Source of the DNA: an uncultured bacterium
GTDB lineage: Bacteria; Patescibacteriota; Minisyncoccia; UBA6257; 2-01-FULL-56-20
DNA length: 64,000 bases
Reading direction: 5' to 3'
Assembly: GCA_963844965.1 (NCBI GenBank)
Contig: CAWJQC010000007.1
Span: forward strand, 224,001-288,000
Shown here: one piece after another, positions 6,481 to 37,545 of the stretch
Numbering within the stretch: the stretch's first letter is position 1
Layout of the letters: the number at the start of each line of letters is the position of its first letter
Notes under the pieces: generated by a model
Seen by the model: only the letters and a program-made list of their open reading frames with translations
The model's database searches: none
Told to the model about the DNA's origin: nothing
Made by a program: the position numbers and the translations under genes

Positions 6481-7389
6481 ATGTTTACCGTTATCTCCCG
6501 CATAATTCATTTCGGCTTAAAGAATTTCTGGCGGAACGGCTGGCTTTCAACGGCCACCGTGGCCATTATGGTACTGGCTTCGCTTATGCTCGTGGGGCTC
6601 GTGCTCTTCGGCGTGATTTCCAGCAGTGCGGCGGCTTCCATCCAGGACAAGATTGACATAAGCGTTTATTTCAAAACCACCACCTCCGAGGACCAGATTT
6701 TAAATATCAAACAATCGCTTGAGCAACTCTCTCAGGTGAAAAACGTTGATTATGTTTCCCAGGACCAAGCCCTCGCGATTTTCAAGGAAGCTCACAAGGA
6801 CGATCCCACCATAAGCCAGGGGATAAACGAGTTGGATACGAATCCGCTTGAAGCGTCGCTCAATATCAAAGCTAACAAGCCGGACCAGTACGGGACCATA
6901 GCCGACTACCTGAACTCGGCGAATCTGAGTTCATATATAGACAAGGTGAGTTATTCGGACACCAAGACCATGATTGACAGGTTGACCGCTATTATTAACA
7001 ACGTCACGCGCGGCGGCTTCATACTGACCGTTGTCCTCGCGCTCGTCGCCGGATTGGTGGTTTTCAACACCATACGGCTTGCCATATATTCCAATCGCGA
7101 AGAGATCGGTATTATGCGCGTCGTCGGCGCCTCCAACAGTTTGGTCCGCGGACCGCTTGTCGTTGAAGGAATAATTTCCGGCGTGCTCGCGGCAATCTTG
7201 AGCGTAGCGATCGCGGCGCCCATCGTCTATTTTCTGTCGCCGTATATCAAGATTTTCATAGCCGGTTTGGATATTTTCCAGTATTTCTACGCGAACATCG
7301 GCCGACTGTTTCTGTACCAGCTTTTGTTCGGAGTGGGTATCGCCAGTTTGTCCAGTTTGGTTGCCGTGAGAAGGTATCTGAAGAACTAG
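6481..7389 (+). CDS. ftsX: Cell division permease-like protein FtsX
   Basis: 302 aa; N-terminal TM, periplasmic domain and C-terminal 3-TM FtsX-like permease domain; downstream of ftsE. Confidence 0.85.
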   Translation: MFTVISRIIHFGLKNFWRNGWLSTATVAIMVLASLMLVGLVLFGVISSSAAASIQDKIDISVYFKTTTSEDQILNIKQSLEQLSQVKNVDYVSQDQALAIFKEAHKDDPTISQGINELDTNPLEASLNIKANKPDQYGTIADYLNSANLSSYIDKVSYSDTKTMIDRLTAIINNVTRGGFILTVVLALVAGLVVFNTIRLAIYSNREEIGIMRVVGASNSLVRGPLVVEGIISGVLAAILSVAIAAPIVYFLSPYIKIFIAGLDIFQYFYANIGRLFLYQLLFGVGIASLSSLVAVRRYLKN

Positions 7390-13308: not shown

Positions 13309-14388
13309 ATGAACAAATTTCAGAGAATTCTTTCCCGATTATTTGACAGCGTCCCGCTTCAGGACAAAATTAATTTCGCGCGGCATATGGCGCTTATCAT
13401 AAAAGCCGGATTGCCGATATACCAGGGACTGGGGATTATCCGCGCCCAAACGACTTCCAAGGTGCTCCTTAAGGTGATAGACAGCGTTATGGAAGACGTG
13501 AACAACGGGAAGTTTCTTGCCGACGGGTTGGAAAAATTTGAATATCTTTTCGGGACTTTTTTTGTGAACATCATCCGCGTGGGGGAATCGAGCGGGACCC
13601 TCGCCAAGAATTTCTTGTATCTTGCCGAAGAACTCAAAAAATCCAAAGCGCTCAAAAGCAAGGTCACTTCGGCAATGATATATCCGCTTGTGATTTTTGC
13701 TATGACTTTGGGAGTGACGGGTTTTCTGGCGTTTTTCGTTTTCCCGAAACTTCTGCCGGTATTCGCGAGCTTGAACGTCAAGCTGCCCATAACCACCGTC
13801 ATAATGATGGGCGTCCTCCAGTTTTTGCGCGAGTATTTCATAGAGCTCATAATCGGGGTCGTCATTCTTGTTGTCGCAGTTAGGATGATTATTAAGTACG
13901 TAACGCCGATAAAGTTCCTTCTGGATAAGTTGATTCTTGTAACGCCGGTAATCGGGCCGCTTTCCGTTGATGTTAATATGGTCAATTTTACGCGCGTCTT
14001 TGGATTGCTTTTGAAGAGCGGCGTAAAAATCTTGGAGGCGGCCATGATAACATCAAATACTTTTGAGAATATCGTCTACAGACGGGCGCTCGTAGCCGCG
14101 AAAGATGAAGTTCAGAAAGGCGGCCAGCTCGCGACCTATATGGGCGAAAAAAAGAGATATTTTCCTCCGCTAGTGACCGGCATGATACGCATCGGTGAGG
14201 ATACCGGCAATCTGGAAGAAAACCTGGACTACCTTTCGGAATATTACGAGGACGAAGTTGATACCAAGCTGCACGTTTTGACGAGCGTTCTTGAACCCTT
14301 GATGCTGCTTTTCATGGGGCTTCTCGTCGGATTCGTTGCTTTGTCCATTATCACGCCAATTTACTCCATTTCGCAGGGCATCCAGTAG
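13309..14388 (+). CDS. pilC: Type IV pilus assembly / type II secretion platform protein PilC/GspF
   Basis: 359 aa; duplicated GspF domains, three TM segments, conserved GESSG motif. Confidence 0.85.
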   Translation: MNKFQRILSRLFDSVPLQDKINFARHMALIIKAGLPIYQGLGIIRAQTTSKVLLKVIDSVMEDVNNGKFLADGLEKFEYLFGTFFVNIIRVGESSGTLAKNFLYLAEELKKSKALKSKVTSAMIYPLVIFAMTLGVTGFLAFFVFPKLLPVFASLNVKLPITTVIMMGVLQFLREYFIELIIGVVILVVAVRMIIKYVTPIKFLLDKLILVTPVIGPLSVDVNMVNFTRVFGLLLKSGVKILEAAMITSNTFENIVYRRALVAAKDEVQKGGQLATYMGEKKRYFPPLVTGMIRIGEDTGNLEENLDYLSEYYEDEVDTKLHVLTSVLEPLMLLFMGLLVGFVALSIITPIYSISQGIQ

Positions 14389-14393
14389 CTCCA

Positions 14394-14528
14394 ACTTTCT
14401 ATTTTTGAGAACCGGCGTCACGAATGCTCCAGCGGCATTCGTGCGCCTGCATCTCGCTCCGACGGCGTCCGATTAAAATCGGACGACCAAGCCCGTCGGA
14501 GCTCCGATAGCTTCTCAAAAATAGAAAG
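14394..14528. repeat. About 135-bp palindromic element: 19-bp perfect terminal inverted repeats (AACTTTCTATTTTTGAGAA / TTCTCAAAAATAGAAAGTT) enclosing three internal hairpins
   Basis: Seen directly in sequence; MITE-like or complex terminator/structured RNA. Confidence 0.6.
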
Positions 14529-14639
14529 TTTCCGCGATGGGATTAAGGTGTTTTGCTGACGCAAAACAGCCTTTGTGAAGCAACACCCGGCGCTTTTGGA
14601 AATAAAAATCGCCCCGATCTGTCTGATCGGGGCGCGCTG

Positions 14640-15173
14640 TCAGGGTTTCCACTCTGGCGGAAATTTGTAAATGTCGTATGTCTCAAGGAGTACGCCGAAA
14701 GTCTCACTTTCTATACGGCGTTTTTCAAGTACGGCTTCAAAGACCAGTTCCAGCCCGGCTTTTTTATAGTAGGGCTGGTGACCGCGAGCGAGAACCCGGG
14801 CCACATCCAGGACTGTTTCCGGCGCAGATTGTCCCGCTAATTGTACGATGTCCGAAAATTGGTATGTTCGCCGACCGCCTACATCGCAGTGATTCACAAT
14901 AACGTACTCAATGCTGTAACTTATGCCGTCTCCATCCTGTCCCCATATGGGGTTGATCTTGAATTCTCGGAAAACAGGTCTGAGTGAAAGATTAAGATTG
15001 TCAAATGGCCGGACTGCTATGTATTTTACTTTGTCGGTAATCCAGCGGCGCAGAAGTTCGCTTTCGCTTACATTTCTTCGCGACGCTTCCGCGATTCTCT
15101 CCGAAGGATTGCCGATTTTCCTTGAGAGCCATGGTATCTCGGATAAGTATTCTCGTGCCTTTGACCACTTCAT
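14640..15173 (-). CDS. Hypothetical protein (177 aa) on the opposite strand inside the pilus locus
   Basis: Long ORF with no recognisable family. Confidence 0.4.
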   Translation of the reverse strand: MKWSKAREYLSEIPWLSRKIGNPSERIAEASRRNVSESELLRRWITDKVKYIAVRPFDNLNLSLRPVFREFKINPIWGQDGDGISYSIEYVIVNHCDVGGRRTYQFSDIVQLAGQSAPETVLDVARVLARGHQPYYKKAGLELVFEAVLEKRRIESETFGVLLETYDIYKFPPEWKP

Positions 15174-28857: not shown

Positions 28858-30105
28858 ATGCTTCAATCCGAACTTTTCACCAAGGTTTCGCGGGACGCGC
28901 CCAGCGATGAAGCCGCTTTGAGCGCCAAACTGCTCACGCGGGCGGGATTTGTGAGTAAGGTGATGGCCGGCGTTTACGAGTTTATGCCGCTCGGTTTGCG
29001 CGTCTTGAACAAGATCAACGCCGTCATCCGCGACGAGATGGACAAAACGGGCGCGCAGGAAATTTTCATGTCCGTTTTGCAGAACAAGGAGACATGGGCG
29101 AAGAGCGGGCGGTGGGAAACGGCGAAAGACGTCATGTATCAATTCAAGGACGCTTCCGGCAAAGAAGTCGGTCTCGGCTGGACGCACGAGGAGCCGCTCA
29201 CGGTCGCTGCCAAGAAATATATAAGTTCCTATCGGGACTTGCCGCGCGCCGTCTACCAGATCCAGACGAAGTTCAGGAACGAACCGCGGGCGAAGTCCGG
29301 CCTTTTGCGCAGCAAGGAATTTTTAATGAAGGATTTGTATAGTTTCCACGCCAGCGAAGAATGCCTGAATAAATATTACGAGCGCGTTGCCGTCGCTTAC
29401 GGCAATATATTCAAGAGAATTGGTCTGAACGCGCTGCGCACGGTGGCTTCCGGCGGTCTGTTCTCAAAATATTCCGACGAATTCCAGGTGCTTTGCGACG
29501 CCGGCGAGGATACGATTTTCCATTGCGAGAATTGTCCTTATGCCGCCAATCTTGACGTAGCCGAAGAACTTAAACTTAAGAATAAATGTCCAGCCCGCCT
29601 GCCGGACGGGCAGGAATGCGGGGGAAAGATAAAAAAGGCGAAAAGCATAGAAGTCGGCAATATTTTCAAGCTGGGAACGAAGTTCTCGGAAGCGTTCGGC
29701 CTGACTTTTAAGGATGAAAAAGGCGCCGAAAAACCGGTGATTATGGCTTCATACGGCATAGGGCCGGGGAGAGTGCTAGCGACTATCGTGGAAATTCATC
29801 ATGACGAAGCGGGAATTATCTGGCCGGAGGCGGTCGCGCCCTTCCGGGTGCATTTATTGGAGCTTGGCGGTGCGAAGGGCGAAGAGTTGTACAAATCTTT
29901 ACAAAAAGGTGGAATTGACGTACTCTATGACACGAGAGACATGTCGGCGGGCGAGAAATTCGCCGAGGCCGATCTTATCGGAATTCCTTGGCGCGCAGTC
30001 GTAAGCCAGAAAACCGGCGACAAAGTGGAGATAAAAAAACGTGGCGAAAAGGAGACGAAGCTAATGGACGTCAAGGAAGTCATCAAACAAATAAGTAATT
30101 CGTAA
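28858..30105 (+). CDS. proS: Proline--tRNA ligase (short form without editing insertion)
   Basis: Class II aaRS motifs with ProRS-specific sequence and anticodon-binding domain; 415 aa. Confidence 0.9.
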   Translation: MLQSELFTKVSRDAPSDEAALSAKLLTRAGFVSKVMAGVYEFMPLGLRVLNKINAVIRDEMDKTGAQEIFMSVLQNKETWAKSGRWETAKDVMYQFKDASGKEVGLGWTHEEPLTVAAKKYISSYRDLPRAVYQIQTKFRNEPRAKSGLLRSKEFLMKDLYSFHASEECLNKYYERVAVAYGNIFKRIGLNALRTVASGGLFSKYSDEFQVLCDAGEDTIFHCENCPYAANLDVAEELKLKNKCPARLPDGQECGGKIKKAKSIEVGNIFKLGTKFSEAFGLTFKDEKGAEKPVIMASYGIGPGRVLATIVEIHHDEAGIIWPEAVAPFRVHLLELGGAKGEELYKSLQKGGIDVLYDTRDMSAGEKFAEADLIGIPWRAVVSQKTGDKVEIKKRGEKETKLMDVKEVIKQISNS

Positions 30106-30185
30106 TTGGTAACTGGTAATTGGCTGGTTCGGAAAAGATCCAAACAACCTAATCAGCCGATTACCAATTACTATTTACCGCTTTC

Positions 30186-31229
30186 ATGAAATTTTTTGAT
30201 AAAATTTTCAACGACATTGGTATTGACCTCGGTACGGCGAATTCGCTCGTGTATTTCAGGAATCGCGGCATTGTCGTGAACGAGCCGACGGTTGCCGCGG
30301 TGAATAACAAGACGAACAAGATCTTGTCCATCGGGGAAGACGCGAAAAAAATGCTCGGGCGGACTCCGGGGCACATAAACGTTATCCGGCCGCTCGTGAA
30401 CGGCGTTATTTCGGATTTTGACATGACGCAGGAATATTTGCGCGAGCTTTTGCGGCGTCCGAGAACCAACCCGATTTTAAGTTATAGAAGGGCCATTCTT
30501 TCCATTCCCAATAATCTTACGGAGGTGGAACAGAAGTCGGTTGAGGACGCCGGACTGAACGCCGGTTGCTCACGCGTTTATCTCGTGGAGTCAACGACTG
30601 CCGCGGCTCTCGGCGCCGACATGCCCATAAGCGAGCCGTCGGCGAGTTTGATAATAGATATCGGCGGCGGCACGACGGACATCGCCGTGATTTCCCTGGG
30701 AGGTACCGTTGTTTCGCGGACATTGAAAGTCGCCGGCGACAAGCTTAACGATGACATCGTCAGGTTTGTCCGCGACGAATTCCGTTTGGCAATCGGCGAA
30801 CCGACGGCCGAGTACGCGAAGATCGCCGTTGGTTCCGCCGTTCCCATGGACGACAGATTGGAAGTGCCGATACGCGGGCGCGATTACACCTCCGGTCTTC
30901 CGAAAGAGGTCATCATAAAGAACAATCACATACGCGCCGCGATCCAGAAATCGCTGCGCACCATAACGGATTCCGTGCGGGAGGTGATAGAGGAAACGCC
31001 GCCGGAGCTCGTGGGCGATATTTTGAGTCATGGGATCTACGTTTGCGGCGGCGGCGCGATGCTCCGCGGCTTGGACGAACTTTTGGGCAAGGAAGCGGCC
31101 GTACCCGTGCGCATCGTGGATGAGCCCCTGACCTGCGTGGCGCGCGGACTGGGCAGAATGGTTGAAGATTTTGACGCCTACAGAGCATTGCTCAATAACC
31201 CGCCAAAGCCGCTGTCAATCAACTTGTAG
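30186..31229 (+). CDS. mreB: Rod shape-determining protein MreB
   Basis: Actin-fold motifs IGIDLGTANS and DIGGGTTD; 347 aa. Confidence 0.9.
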   Translation: MKFFDKIFNDIGIDLGTANSLVYFRNRGIVVNEPTVAAVNNKTNKILSIGEDAKKMLGRTPGHINVIRPLVNGVISDFDMTQEYLRELLRRPRTNPILSYRRAILSIPNNLTEVEQKSVEDAGLNAGCSRVYLVESTTAAALGADMPISEPSASLIIDIGGGTTDIAVISLGGTVVSRTLKVAGDKLNDDIVRFVRDEFRLAIGEPTAEYAKIAVGSAVPMDDRLEVPIRGRDYTSGLPKEVIIKNNHIRAAIQKSLRTITDSVREVIEETPPELVGDILSHGIYVCGGGAMLRGLDELLGKEAAVPVRIVDEPLTCVARGLGRMVEDFDAYRALLNNPPKPLSINL

Positions 31230-33275: not shown

Positions 33276-33307
33276 AACAAAAAATTTCGGTGATAAGCTA
33301 AGGAGTG

Positions 33308-33418
33308 GTCGCGAATAACGCGAATGGCGGCAAATAATGCGAATAAATCTTACTTTTGTTTTTCGCGGGTATCTTTCATAATTCGCGTTATTAAATAAAA
33401 ATTCGCATTATTCGCGAT
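33308..33418. promoter_or_regulatory. Four copies (two per orientation) of a 12-bp motif AATAACGCGAAT / ATTCGCGTTATT upstream of mrdA; operator-like
   Basis: Copies at about 33311, 33334, 33380 and 33401, arranged as a large imperfect palindrome ending 7 nt before the ATG. Confidence 0.45.
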
Positions 33419-33424
33419 TACTCC

Positions 33425-36342: not shown

Positions 36343-36685
36343 ATGCTAAAAAAGATTTTAAAATCCAGGATAGTCAGCTCTATTTTTTTGCTGGATCCTG
36401 CTTTTGGTTCTGGGCGGAACGATCTGGGTGTATTTCGCCCTGCGTCATATCGCGCCGCCGCTGATTCTTCATTTCAACAACCTCGCCGGGATTAACCAGA
36501 CCGGGAATTTGGCGGATTTATTGGAGATCGGTGCCACCGGCATTGTTTTCGTGCTCGTGAACTTTTTTATAGCGTTGGAGCTGGAGAATAGGGACGCGTT
36601 CGGCGGCAAGCTTCTGGCCGCGGCGACCCTATTCCTCGCGATTTTGATTTTCATTGGCTTTGCCGCTATAATTTCTGCAAATTAG
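36343..36685 (+). CDS. Small polytopic membrane protein; ATG at 36343 and body (from 36404) are in different frames, joined if the T7 run at 36383-36389 were T6
   Basis: ORF track body 36404..36685 starts on TTG; an upstream ATG ORF ([15 protein letters not shown]...) ends shortly after the T7 run; removing one T fuses them. Confidence 0.4.
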
Positions 36686-37174
36686 TATCGATGCTAATAT
36701 ACGAATGAGTACTAATGATACGAATAACCGAAACAGGAAACTTATTTATCCGGAATTATCATATACGATTGTCGGCATTTGCTTTGAAGTTCATAATCAG
36801 CTCGGGAGATTTGAGAGGGAAAAACAATACGGGGATTTGACAGAAAAGAAGTTAAAAGAGTCCGGTATTTCATACGAGCGCGAACGCGAGATTTTGAAAA
36901 CGGGAAACCGGGTTGATTTTTTGATTGATGGTAAGATCATCTTAGAAGTCAAAGCAAGAAAACTTGTTTTAAAAGATGATTTTTATCAACTGCAGCGCTA
37001 TCTTCAGGCTGCTGGTAAAAAGCTCGGTTTGATAGTAAATTTTAGAAACCGCTATTTGAAACCAATCAGGATTATCCGCATTGATACTGACGCAAGGAAA
37101 AAATTTCAATAACTTGCAAAAATTGTCATTATAGATTAGTATAATTAGCATCATTAGTATATTAGCATCGATAC
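36685..37174. mobile_element. 490-bp cassette bounded by 18-bp perfect terminal inverted repeats (GTATCGATGCTAATATAC / GTATATTAGCATCGATAC), carrying a GxxExxY-family gene
   Basis: TIRs at 36685-36702 and 37157-37174 with an imperfect extension (TACTAATGAT); the right TIR ends 1 nt before the rplU ATG. Confidence 0.45.
36705..37112 (+). CDS. GxxExxY-family protein (PD-(D/E)xK nuclease-like)
   Basis: [19 protein letters not shown] motif and overall 135-aa architecture typical of the GxxExxY family. Confidence 0.7.
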
Positions 37175-37175
37175 C

Positions 37176-37488
37176 ATGTCTAAATTTTCGATAATCGAGA
37201 CGGGAGGAAAACAATATAAAGTTTCCGCCGGTCAAAAAATTAAGGTGGAAAAACTGAACGCGGAGGCGGGCGATTCTTTTGTTTTTGACAAGGTTTTGCT
37301 TGTTGTGGATGGCGAAAAAGTTGAGATTGGCACGCCATATATCGCCGGCGCGAAAGTGGAAGCCAAAGTTTTGCGCCAAGCCCGCGAACGCAAGAAAATC
37401 GTTTTCAAATACCATTCCAAAACGAGATATAAAAAAGAAAAAAGGACACCGACAACATTTTACGGAGGTGTTAGTGGAGAAAATTTGA
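37176..37488 (+). CDS. rplU: 50S ribosomal protein L21; frame shifts within the A6-G-A6 tract at 37431-37443 and the true C-terminus (KKKKGHRQHFTEVLVEKI) is in the +1 frame
   Basis: N-terminus MSKFSIIETGGKQYKV is canonical L21; the conserved C-terminal tail is only found in the overlapping ORF ending at 37488. Confidence 0.85.
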
Positions 37489-37545
37489 TTTGTTATAATT
37501 AATCGCAGTAATCTTTATACGGGCCGCTTTCGGGGGTGATGTGGC

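Follow-up and report, generated by a model that had tools for sequence, protein, structure and literature searches.

A GxxExxY nuclease-like gene between terminal inverted repeats upstream of rplU in a Patescibacteria contig, probably the gene-carrying form of a hairpin-ended element family

The cassette at the tm93/rplU junction

We examined a 64,000-nt stretch (referred to here as the window, i.e. the whole DNA that was analysed) of contig CAWJQC010000007.1 from an uncultured bacterium of the Patescibacteriota, in which a 490-nt cassette occupies the junction upstream of rplU, the gene for ribosomal protein L21. The whole cassette (36685–37174, forward strand), composed of a left repeat arm, an open reading frame (ORF) of the GxxExxY family and a right repeat arm, was delimited by its inverted repeat, GC content, RNA fold and comparison with relatives, and it fills the entire gap from the upstream stop codon to the rplU start codon. 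We regard it as probably the gene-carrying form of a family of hairpin-ended selfish elements in the Candidate Phyla Radiation (CPR)/Patescibacteria, with gene-less miniatures as its non-autonomous members. The architecture of the cassette, the family of its protein, its multicopy spread, the polymorphism of its site, the purifying selection on its gene and the generality of the arrangement across phyla were observed directly.

The 18-bp perfect terminal inverted repeat (TIR) proposed in the original prediction was recovered, with GTATCGATGCTAATATAC at 36685–36702 and its exact reverse complement at 37157–37174. A search of the 64-kb window with up to 3 mismatches returned just these two matches, for which the chance expectation is 0.03, and two or more matches were obtained in 0/100 shuffles. 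In the repeat search the arms lengthened to 24 nt at 96% identity (36685–36708 and 37151–37174), followed by a second, inner block (36710–36725 and 37144–37159) at 88% identity. Allowing a 1-nt indel, they span about 41 and 40 nt (36685–36725 and 37135–37174), in agreement with the imperfect extension of about 40 bp noted earlier.

The left arm (36685–36725, forward strand), perfect over 36685–36702, reads GTATC followed by GATGCTAAT, ATACGAAT, GAGTACTAAT and GATACGAAT, and includes the start codon of the ORF plus codons 1–7. This start codon (36705–36707), which had been placed inside the left repeat, does lie in its imperfect extension but not in the perfect 18-mer. The right arm (37135–37174, forward strand), perfect over 37157–37174, begins 22 nt past the ORF stop codon and carries –10-like hexamers (TATAAT, TATATT and TAGCAT) pointing toward rplU. 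It ends 1 nt before the rplU ATG (37176), exactly as predicted, and the element correctly appears as the immediate 5′ context of rplU, whose start codon is preceded by no Shine-Dalgarno (SD) sequence.

The upstream neighbour is a 93-aa membrane ORF with no Pfam match (tm93, 36404–36685, forward strand), whose TAG stop codon (36683–36685) shares its last base with the first base of the left arm, while the downstream neighbour rplU (37176–37502, forward strand) is matched by PF00829 and TIGR00061. The two genes adjoin each other also in relatives L001, L129–L137 and L146. The GC content is 35.1% in the element versus 51% upstream and 48% downstream.

When the 490-nt unit was folded as RNA, the terminal stem closed the whole of it in both the minimum free energy and the centroid structures (z = –3.9), with 18 perfect and about 14 further pairs in the closing stem. 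Positions 36500–37400 gave no Rfam match at E up to 1, and thus the cassette region belongs to no described RNA family.

The 135-aa ORF (36705–37112, forward strand) exceeded the curated cutoffs of both relevant profiles, PF13366 PDDEXK_3 (2.8e-19, 70.1 bits, cutoff 22) and TIGR04256 GxxExxY (5.5e-19, 68.7 bits, cutoff 35), which bears out its earlier assignment as a GxxExxY-family ORF between the repeats. We identified the PD-(D/E)xK core (an acidic helix-1 residue, D, and ExK on adjacent strands) in a restriction-endonuclease-like fold. Of the putative catalytic residues, E39, D71 and K83 do not vary among homologues, and E81 is at least 90% conserved. The motif region of the window protein, G34-R-F-E37-R-E39-K-Q-Y42, corresponds to GxxExxxxY, or to ExxY with two extra residues, and members outside CPR read GLLESxY at the same place. 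The nuclease core is closer to Cas4/Dna2/RecB than to known homing enzymes; the fold is Cas4-like, and no Y1_Tnp match was found in the cassette protein. The dN/dS ratio (nonsynonymous to synonymous) is 0.09, equal to that of L21, which indicates that the nuclease is a functional protein under strong purifying selection. Its relatives number more than 1000, at 60–88% identity, and the named ones are all Patescibacteria/CPR.

In homologues the N-terminus MHTNDTN(K) is at least 90% conserved, and the window version, MSTNDTN, is encoded by the inner left arm; in nearly all of more than 90 homologues, the left arm overlaps the start codon and the first codons. Since this stretch is disordered in the structure model and its bases are also conserved in non-coding miniatures, the constraint acts on the nucleotides, and MSTNDTN is a by-product of the repeat arm. 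Such hairpins also produce spurious annotated N-termini (MHTNDTN…) and break up assemblies. GxxExxY/PDDEXK_3 is a large family without assigned function, mentioned only in passing in the searchable literature, where nothing on its function was found; the cassette provides its first concrete biological context.

The same arrangement in CPR relatives and in other phyla

As had been suggested with the original prediction, relatives were searched for further copies of the TIR and for GxxExxY paralogues. The TIR-pattern scan, which took one genome per species, found the repeat in at least 120 genomic stretches, nearly all of them CPR metagenome-assembled genomes by record labels. After removal of duplicates, at least 82 miniatures and at least 13 cassettes remained among the matches listed, on which the miniature and cassette statistics given here rest. 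The refutation that had been set was a TIR occurring once in the genome, with a gene that keeps its synteny and lacks the TIR in every relative; the results show the opposite.

Every CPR homologue whose DNA was read is bracketed by this TIR, amounting to 13 unique cassettes at differing gene junctions. The ends are alike at L001 (an 88% orthologue in the same synteny), L002 (ligA/gatC, and after gatA) and L004 (dnaB/recR), which share CGATRCYAATATACKAATGCATACTAATGATACKAAT on the left and, as reverse complement, CGATRCTAATATACKAATTNATACTAATTATACKAAT on the right. Each arm is built of four tandem ATAC[G/T]AAT units (ATAC-N-AAT) with a period of 8–10 nt, and 56 oriented miniatures together with the 13 cassettes give the consensus GATRCYAAT ATACKAAT gcATACTAAT kATACKAAT. 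All full-size pairs among the matches listed hold a GxxExxY ORF (18/18, 13 unique) and no other cargo. Two cassettes lie within 2.2 kb of each other in L002, and genome CAZCSJ also has two (L022 and L042). A chance inverted repeat around an ordinary gene would be consistent with the one copy in the window, but only 0.03 matches are expected by chance, and the repeat stands at every homologous locus and in all these stretches, which refutes this explanation.

Further GxxExxY genes were found at pilT/pilC and at DUF2229/BcrAD, where they are gene calls only, without a TIR reading; in L217 a second such gene, again a gene call only, lies just upstream of the DUF2229 gene. In L217–L224 (298–5180), the DUF2229 and BcrAD_BadFG family genes that flank one cassette each hold an intein with LAGLIDADG traces. 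This locus is a dense cluster of selfish elements, i.e. inteins and GxxExxY genes.

Each of the 13 unique cassettes runs in the direction of its upstream gene and lies 0–4 nt past the stop codon of that gene. Measured from the repeat core, the distance to this stop codon is 1–14 nt (mostly 3–4), and in the 10 cassettes with a co-oriented downstream gene the start codon of the latter follows 2–8 nt past the core. As this leaves space for neither a promoter nor a ribosome-binding site belonging to the cassette, and as the orientation is co-directional throughout, the cassette is presumably transcribed by read-through and translated via coupling or re-initiation.

Outside CPR, tblastn against plasmid and chromid records yielded seven GxxExxY genes, four of which (L211, L212, L214 and L210) are bracketed by inverted arrays of clade-specific short units, 16–30 nt long. 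In Bacteroides finegoldii the gene lies between radA and a gene for an FAD protein, within arms of 30 nt at 90% identity made of CACAGAGGA units; in Bernardetia it lies between ade and manC (28 nt, 86%, CACAGAGA units), and in Sphingomonas between fabD and fabG (25 nt, 92%, CGCGAAGG units). The Treponema gene has a 16-nt inverted repeat at 88%. All four genes stand between co-oriented housekeeping genes, and the right arm in Sphingomonas lies within the C-terminal codons, in the middle of the fabD–fabG operon. GxxExxY members thus appear to be regularly enclosed by inverted arrays of short tandem units that differ from clade to clade. Taken with the abundant gene-less hairpins of CPR and the polymorphism of orthologous sites described below, this makes of an orphan family a testable system of a nuclease and its cognate hairpins.

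Gene-less miniatures and polymorphic junctions

The spacing between facing arms is bimodal, at 40–145 nt (mode about 80) and at 443–480 nt. The shorter class comprises the miniatures, gene-less hairpins of 60–150 nt with the cassette repeats (at least 82 unique among the matches listed). In four pairs of intermediate size, the loop of a miniature contains nested foreign palindromes, from which it follows that palindromes insert into palindromes; one of the four, L074, is a decayed cassette that keeps MNTNYTNKNK and KLIYPEF remnants. The nested palindromes were located in L074 (7638–7922), L077 (4258–4615) and L036 (1955–2199), and include the GGGAATGAC…GTCATTCCC type, which translates to IPAKAGIQ or SRLRGND.

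Like the cassettes, the miniatures are found at gene junctions (56 tandem, 8 convergent and 7 divergent contexts). The distance to a facing stop codon was 0–8 nt in 44/77 cases, and that to a facing start codon was at most 17 nt in 56/76, the start calls being approximate. The flanking base was C on the left and G on the right (C/GAT…ATC/G), each in 41 of the 56 oriented miniatures. A target-site duplication of 3 nt or more was seen in 0/56 oriented elements, one of 2 nt in 4/56, which is the chance level, and none at the empty sites of tm93/rplU and rplI/pyrG.

Miniatures at different junctions of one genome are 88–92% identical, loops included, whereas between genomes the identity averages 70%, with its 95th percentile at 83% and its maximum at 88.9%. 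Those of CAZCSJ match best the arms of CAZCSJ's own cassettes, including an idiosyncratic right-arm variant. We found nothing relevant in the searchable literature on palindromic or MITE (miniature inverted-repeat transposable element) elements in CPR, and the hairpin element family is large and apparently undescribed.

The possibility that an ordinary MITE family, moved by an unrelated transposase encoded elsewhere, captured GxxExxY as a passenger would account for the terminal inverted repeats, the miniature size, the many copies and the intergenic location. We consider it very unlikely, since the 56 oriented elements show no target-site duplication, GxxExxY is the sole cargo in the 18 full-size pairs, and the beginning of the gene, with its start codon and first codons, falls within the left arm in nearly all homologues. 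In addition, the TIR sequences accompanying GxxExxY in other phyla are unrelated to those of CPR, which argues for a partnership between gene and repeat. The cassette is likewise no classical DDE-type TIR transposon or cut-and-paste MITE; this candidate was rejected because target-site duplications are absent. Of the features of that class, the TIRs are there, but no partner with a known transposase and the same ends was found, GxxExxY being the sole ORF between full-size ends.

With bacterial MITEs (PMC3184786 for the MITE and REP classes), the miniatures share small size, TIR ends, multiple copies, intergenic location and co-transcription with neighbours, and both may carry promoter-like hexamers and RNase III-type stems. 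They differ in having a dedicated non-DDE protein in the full-length form and tandem-unit arms with conserved mismatches. The Neisseria genomes offer an example of bacterial MITEs in their Correia elements.

The syntenic loci around tm93/rplU were fetched from metagenomes via the conserved GalT/HIT-like neighbour, so the region upstream of rplU could be compared in relatives that lack the cassette, as had been proposed. The junction holds the GxxExxY cassette in the window, in L001 and in the P0003 locus; it holds a miniature of the same family, about 95 nt long, in L130 and L133. Nothing but a spacer of 5–19 nt is present in L135, L137 and L146, where the junction is empty. L131 (4420–4520) has another kind of tandem-unit palindrome there, directly abutting both the TAG stop codon and the ATG, with about four TATCAAG/TGTCAAG units on the left and at least six CTGATAC units on the right, and these unequal numbers suggest slippage. 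An unrelated small coiled-coil ORF of about 75–115 aa takes the same place in L129, L132 and L134, and the junction is thus a general insertion hotspot. Occupancy did not track similarity, L129 and L131 being as near to the window as L001. At a second junction, rplI/pyrG, L126 is empty and L031, L071 and L122 have three different miniatures.

Between the window and L001 the synonymous divergence (pS) is 0.38 for the cassette versus 0.74 for the adjacent tm93 and GalT genes, and the GC content at third codon positions (GC3) is 0.39 versus 0.60–0.67 in adjacent genes. Because of these lower values, the cassette looks younger or more foreign than its flanks. The earlier suggestion of a mobile cassette or MITE-like carrier gains support from TIRs at many junctions, the miniatures, the site polymorphism and the likeness of miniatures within genomes.

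Homing-type spread and host domestication are the main alternatives to a hairpin-ended selfish element. In the first, GxxExxY would be a free-standing homing endonuclease that cuts cassette-less alleles, within or close to conserved neighbours such as rplU, and is copied in by recombination with an allele that has the cassette; the TIRs would be secondary, and the miniatures would be products of decay at sites formerly occupied. Several observations are in its favour: the cassettes adjoin highly conserved genes (rplU, gatC, recR, dnaB, ligA, pilC, radA and fabD/fabG), and one conserved junction shows the presence/absence polymorphism expected of homing, since its content (the cassette, another insert or nothing) does not follow how similar the relatives are. 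The synonymous divergence of the cassette is also about half that of adjacent genes, its GC3 looks foreign, no target-site duplication is seen, and a decayed cassette exists. But homing neither needs nor explains terminal inverted repeats of about 40 nt that are conserved in more than 1000 homologues, and it leaves unexplained both the gene-less hairpins that are 88–92% identical, loops too, at different junctions of one genome and the clade-specific tandem-unit arms in several phyla. In its core, too, the nuclease is more like Cas4/Dna2/RecB than like the homing enzymes known so far. Homing is therefore unlikely in our judgement. The seg and mob genes of T-even phages are examples of free-standing homing endonucleases. 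The cassette resembles such genes as a small nuclease gene between conserved genes, with presence/absence polymorphism and foreign composition, and differs from them in its long terminal inverted repeats, its proliferating gene-less derivatives and its residence in CPR chromosomes rather than phages.

Folded ends, proposed mechanism and known systems

As a single strand, either RNA or single-stranded DNA, the ends of the element fold into a stem of about 36 bp, in which blocks of 7–8 bp are separated by conserved mismatches. The predicted folds of the 82 miniatures average –28 kcal/mol; the blocks are paired in 85–94% of them, and positions 6, 14, 18–19, 28 and 33 in 37–50%. At position 6 the two arms of an element have an identity of 0.18 (0.36 in shuffles), and at position 14 one of 0.23 (0.38 in shuffles). 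Each of these two positions is anti-correlated between arms, and they are unlinked to each other within one arm. Compensatory covariation between arms was sought and not found. At position 6, C is favoured in the upstream arm and T in the downstream one (23 versus 8), so the sense RNA mostly has a C-A mismatch there and not a G-U pair, in the same proportion.

The conserved mismatches recur periodically at fixed places, and would fit recognition of a folded strand and not of two identical duplex sites. Integron attC sites and the ends of IS200/IS605 elements work in this way. Selection for a perfect sense-RNA stem was rejected, given the anti-correlation at the variable positions and the prevailing C-A at position 6. 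A relay mini-ORF starting from the arm ATG in miniatures was also tried and not supported, as the ATG-type arm is weakly biased to the upstream side (19 versus 10).

These folds bear on the second of the main alternatives, in which the hairpins would be domesticated by the host as operon punctuation (RNase III sites, mRNA stabilisers, coupling devices or outward promoters), GxxExxY would be a host nuclease whose start codon is sequestered by the stem, and the multiple copies would result from function. The flush position relative to stop codons (44/77 at 0–8 nt) and start codons (56/76 at up to 17 nt) speaks for it, together with the stable miniature hairpins, the terminal stem closing the whole cassette RNA, the strong purifying selection and stable residence, the SD-poor host and the –10-like hexamers of the arm that face the downstream ATG. 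RNase III excision is moreover documented for an analogous intervening sequence (PMC4990558). Domestication seems improbable to us, because close relatives vary in the presence of the element at the same junction, which works without it, GC and GC3 look foreign, the variants are genome-specific and proliferating, foreign palindromes are nested in loops and decayed cassettes exist. The prevailing C-A at position 6 of the sense RNA is also contrary to selection for pairing in that strand.

What moves a hairpin-ended selfish element of this kind, on which nucleic acid it acts and whether processing takes place at the RNA level, we infer as follows. The nuclease would recognise its own clade's ends in their folded, mismatch-bearing state, and would serve to copy or maintain both the miniatures and the cassette, as a PD-(D/E)xK counterpart of the RAYT transposase (the REP-associated tyrosine transposase, REP being the repetitive extragenic palindromic sequence). 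The insert would be tolerated because the stem brackets it exactly between two cistrons. Perhaps host RNase III cuts it from the transcript, as with the ORF-bearing intervening sequence (IVS) of 23S rRNA, or perhaps the terminating ribosome melts the stem. Either way, both neighbour genes would remain intact and translatable in an SD-poor host.

The closest likeness in the miniature population is with REPINs, which are REP doublets forming hairpins, and their RAYT (PMC3116915, PMC3337134, PMC5581495). Both systems have short (about 70–110 nt) hairpin-forming inverted-repeat doublets in extragenic space and a small nuclease or transposase gene bracketed by cognate repeats (here in 13/13 cassettes). 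In both, the gene is purifyingly selected and stably inherited, the repeats are the clade's own, and the miniatures form a within-genome population, which here consists of multicopy hairpins with within-genome pairs of up to 92% identity versus a between-genome maximum of 88.9%. The CPR protein, however, is PDDEXK_3 and Cas4-like instead of an HUH/Y1 (IS200-like) transposase, and L002, CAZCSJ and, by gene call, L217 have more than the one gene copy per repeat family and genome seen in REPIN/RAYT. The arms are arrays of 7–9-nt tandem units, unlike REP with its GTAG/CGTC tag, and the elements stand flush between stop and start codons inside operons of CPR hosts. Relatives of the IS200/IS605 type are not known to make a target-site duplication, and the CPR elements show none.

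The cassette itself resembles the 23S rRNA IVS of Coxiella burnetii and Leptospira. The Coxiella IVS, a selfish element of 428 nt that bears an ORF, is closed by a terminal stem of 28 bp, which RNase III cuts without re-ligation, and tandem heptamer repeats lie in its 5′ part, beside the start codon (PMC4990558). Both are inserts of about 430–490 nt with one ORF of about 120–135 aa, a terminal stem of 24–28 bp with few mismatches, and tandem 7–9-nt repeats near the start codon; both lie inside a host transcript and bring along no ribosome-binding site. In the predicted fold, the cassette ORF is likewise enclosed by a terminal stem of at least 20 bp. The cassette differs in lying between protein-coding genes and encoding PDDEXK_3, not in helix 25/45 of 23S rRNA with an S23p four-helix-bundle protein, in its abundant gene-less miniatures, and in that cutting by RNase III is for the cassette only proposed.

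A broader reading, which we put forward tentatively and consider less likely than not, is that GxxExxY proteins are the dedicated enzymes of an unrecognised, phylum-spanning class of hairpin mobile elements, tandem-unit palindromes at operon stop/start junctions. The protein would then be a Cas4-like transposase, or maintenance nuclease, built of PD-(D/E)xK only and recognising folded ends with mismatches, with the ORF-bearing rRNA IVS as cousins. If true, this would explain why GxxExxY is a multicopy, oddly placed family, and would reveal a new enzymatic route to REPIN-like intragenomic replicators.

Several points weigh against a mobile hairpin element driven by its own nuclease. The 64-kb window holds only one copy of the cassette TIR, with neither a GxxExxY paralogue nor a further TIR copy within it. 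No viral contig with the TIR and no phage record with a homologue was found, so a phage origin or vehicle is not supported. Cassette paralogues of the same genome are only 71–73% identical, and proteins that recur unchanged in many samples do so in a single context each; full cassettes thus look old and stable and may have ceased to move. No recent movement of a full cassette was seen, nor were intermediates of excision or insertion. The miniatures at orthologous sites could have arisen by decay in situ and not by separate insertion, native spacers, which are very short (5–19 nt at empty sites), could by themselves account for the flush position, and that the nuclease acts on the repeats at all is something we infer. 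Outside CPR, 2/7 loci (L213 and L215, from Fusobacteria and Persicobacter) have no simple TIR flanking the gene, and neither has Gemmatirosa L216, which shows just a gene-less 73-nt hairpin of CGCGGAT units downstream. In 50 kb of Bernardetia searched for miniatures, one solo arm only was found, and from such sequences miniatures do not seem obviously abundant outside CPR.

If the cassette is the gene-carrying form of a selfish hairpin family, it would document a substantial load of selfish or semi-domesticated repeats at the operon junctions of very small, tightly packed CPR genomes, where the hairpins must meet transcription, RNA processing and SD-independent translation.

The solo TIR arm of Bernardetia (CTCTGTG units; L233, 1118–1150) lies about 35 nt upstream of purQ, beside an IS4 transposase gene. 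Within the window, two further junction hairpins were noticed, which follow the plan of the cassette family with other units. The first (33302–33424) has YGCGAAT units, its arms being 24 nt at 88% and its predicted fold –49.9 kcal/mol. Its right arm reaches right up to the ATG (33425) of a 634-aa PBP-like gene, its left end shares bases with an SD-like AAGGAG, and a terminator-like hairpin lies just upstream. The second (30095–30178), with arms of about four tandem GTAATTG units and a predicted fold of –34.5 kcal/mol, begins at the upstream TAA stop codon (30103–30105) and ends 7 nt short of the ATG at 30186. A third inverted repeat (14380–14543; 32 nt, 81%, 100-nt spacer) is not of the tandem-unit type and sits between the convergent genes at 13309–14388 (forward strand) and 14640–15173 (reverse strand).

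As for translation in the host, an SD-like 4-mer at –20 to –4 was present in 10/43 long ORFs of the window, which is about the chance level (estimated, not computed). TATAAT-like boxes end 6–8 nt before the ATG of several window genes, e.g. at 6481, 7860 and 8675, suggesting frequent leaderless mRNAs. Finally, rplU is frameshifted at an A-run (37425–37445, AAAAAA GAAAAAA) in the window assembly only. In L209, a short-read assembly made independently from the same organism (99.7% identical), the run is shorter by one A and L21 is intact at 103 aa; the frameshift is thus most likely a homopolymer assembly error.

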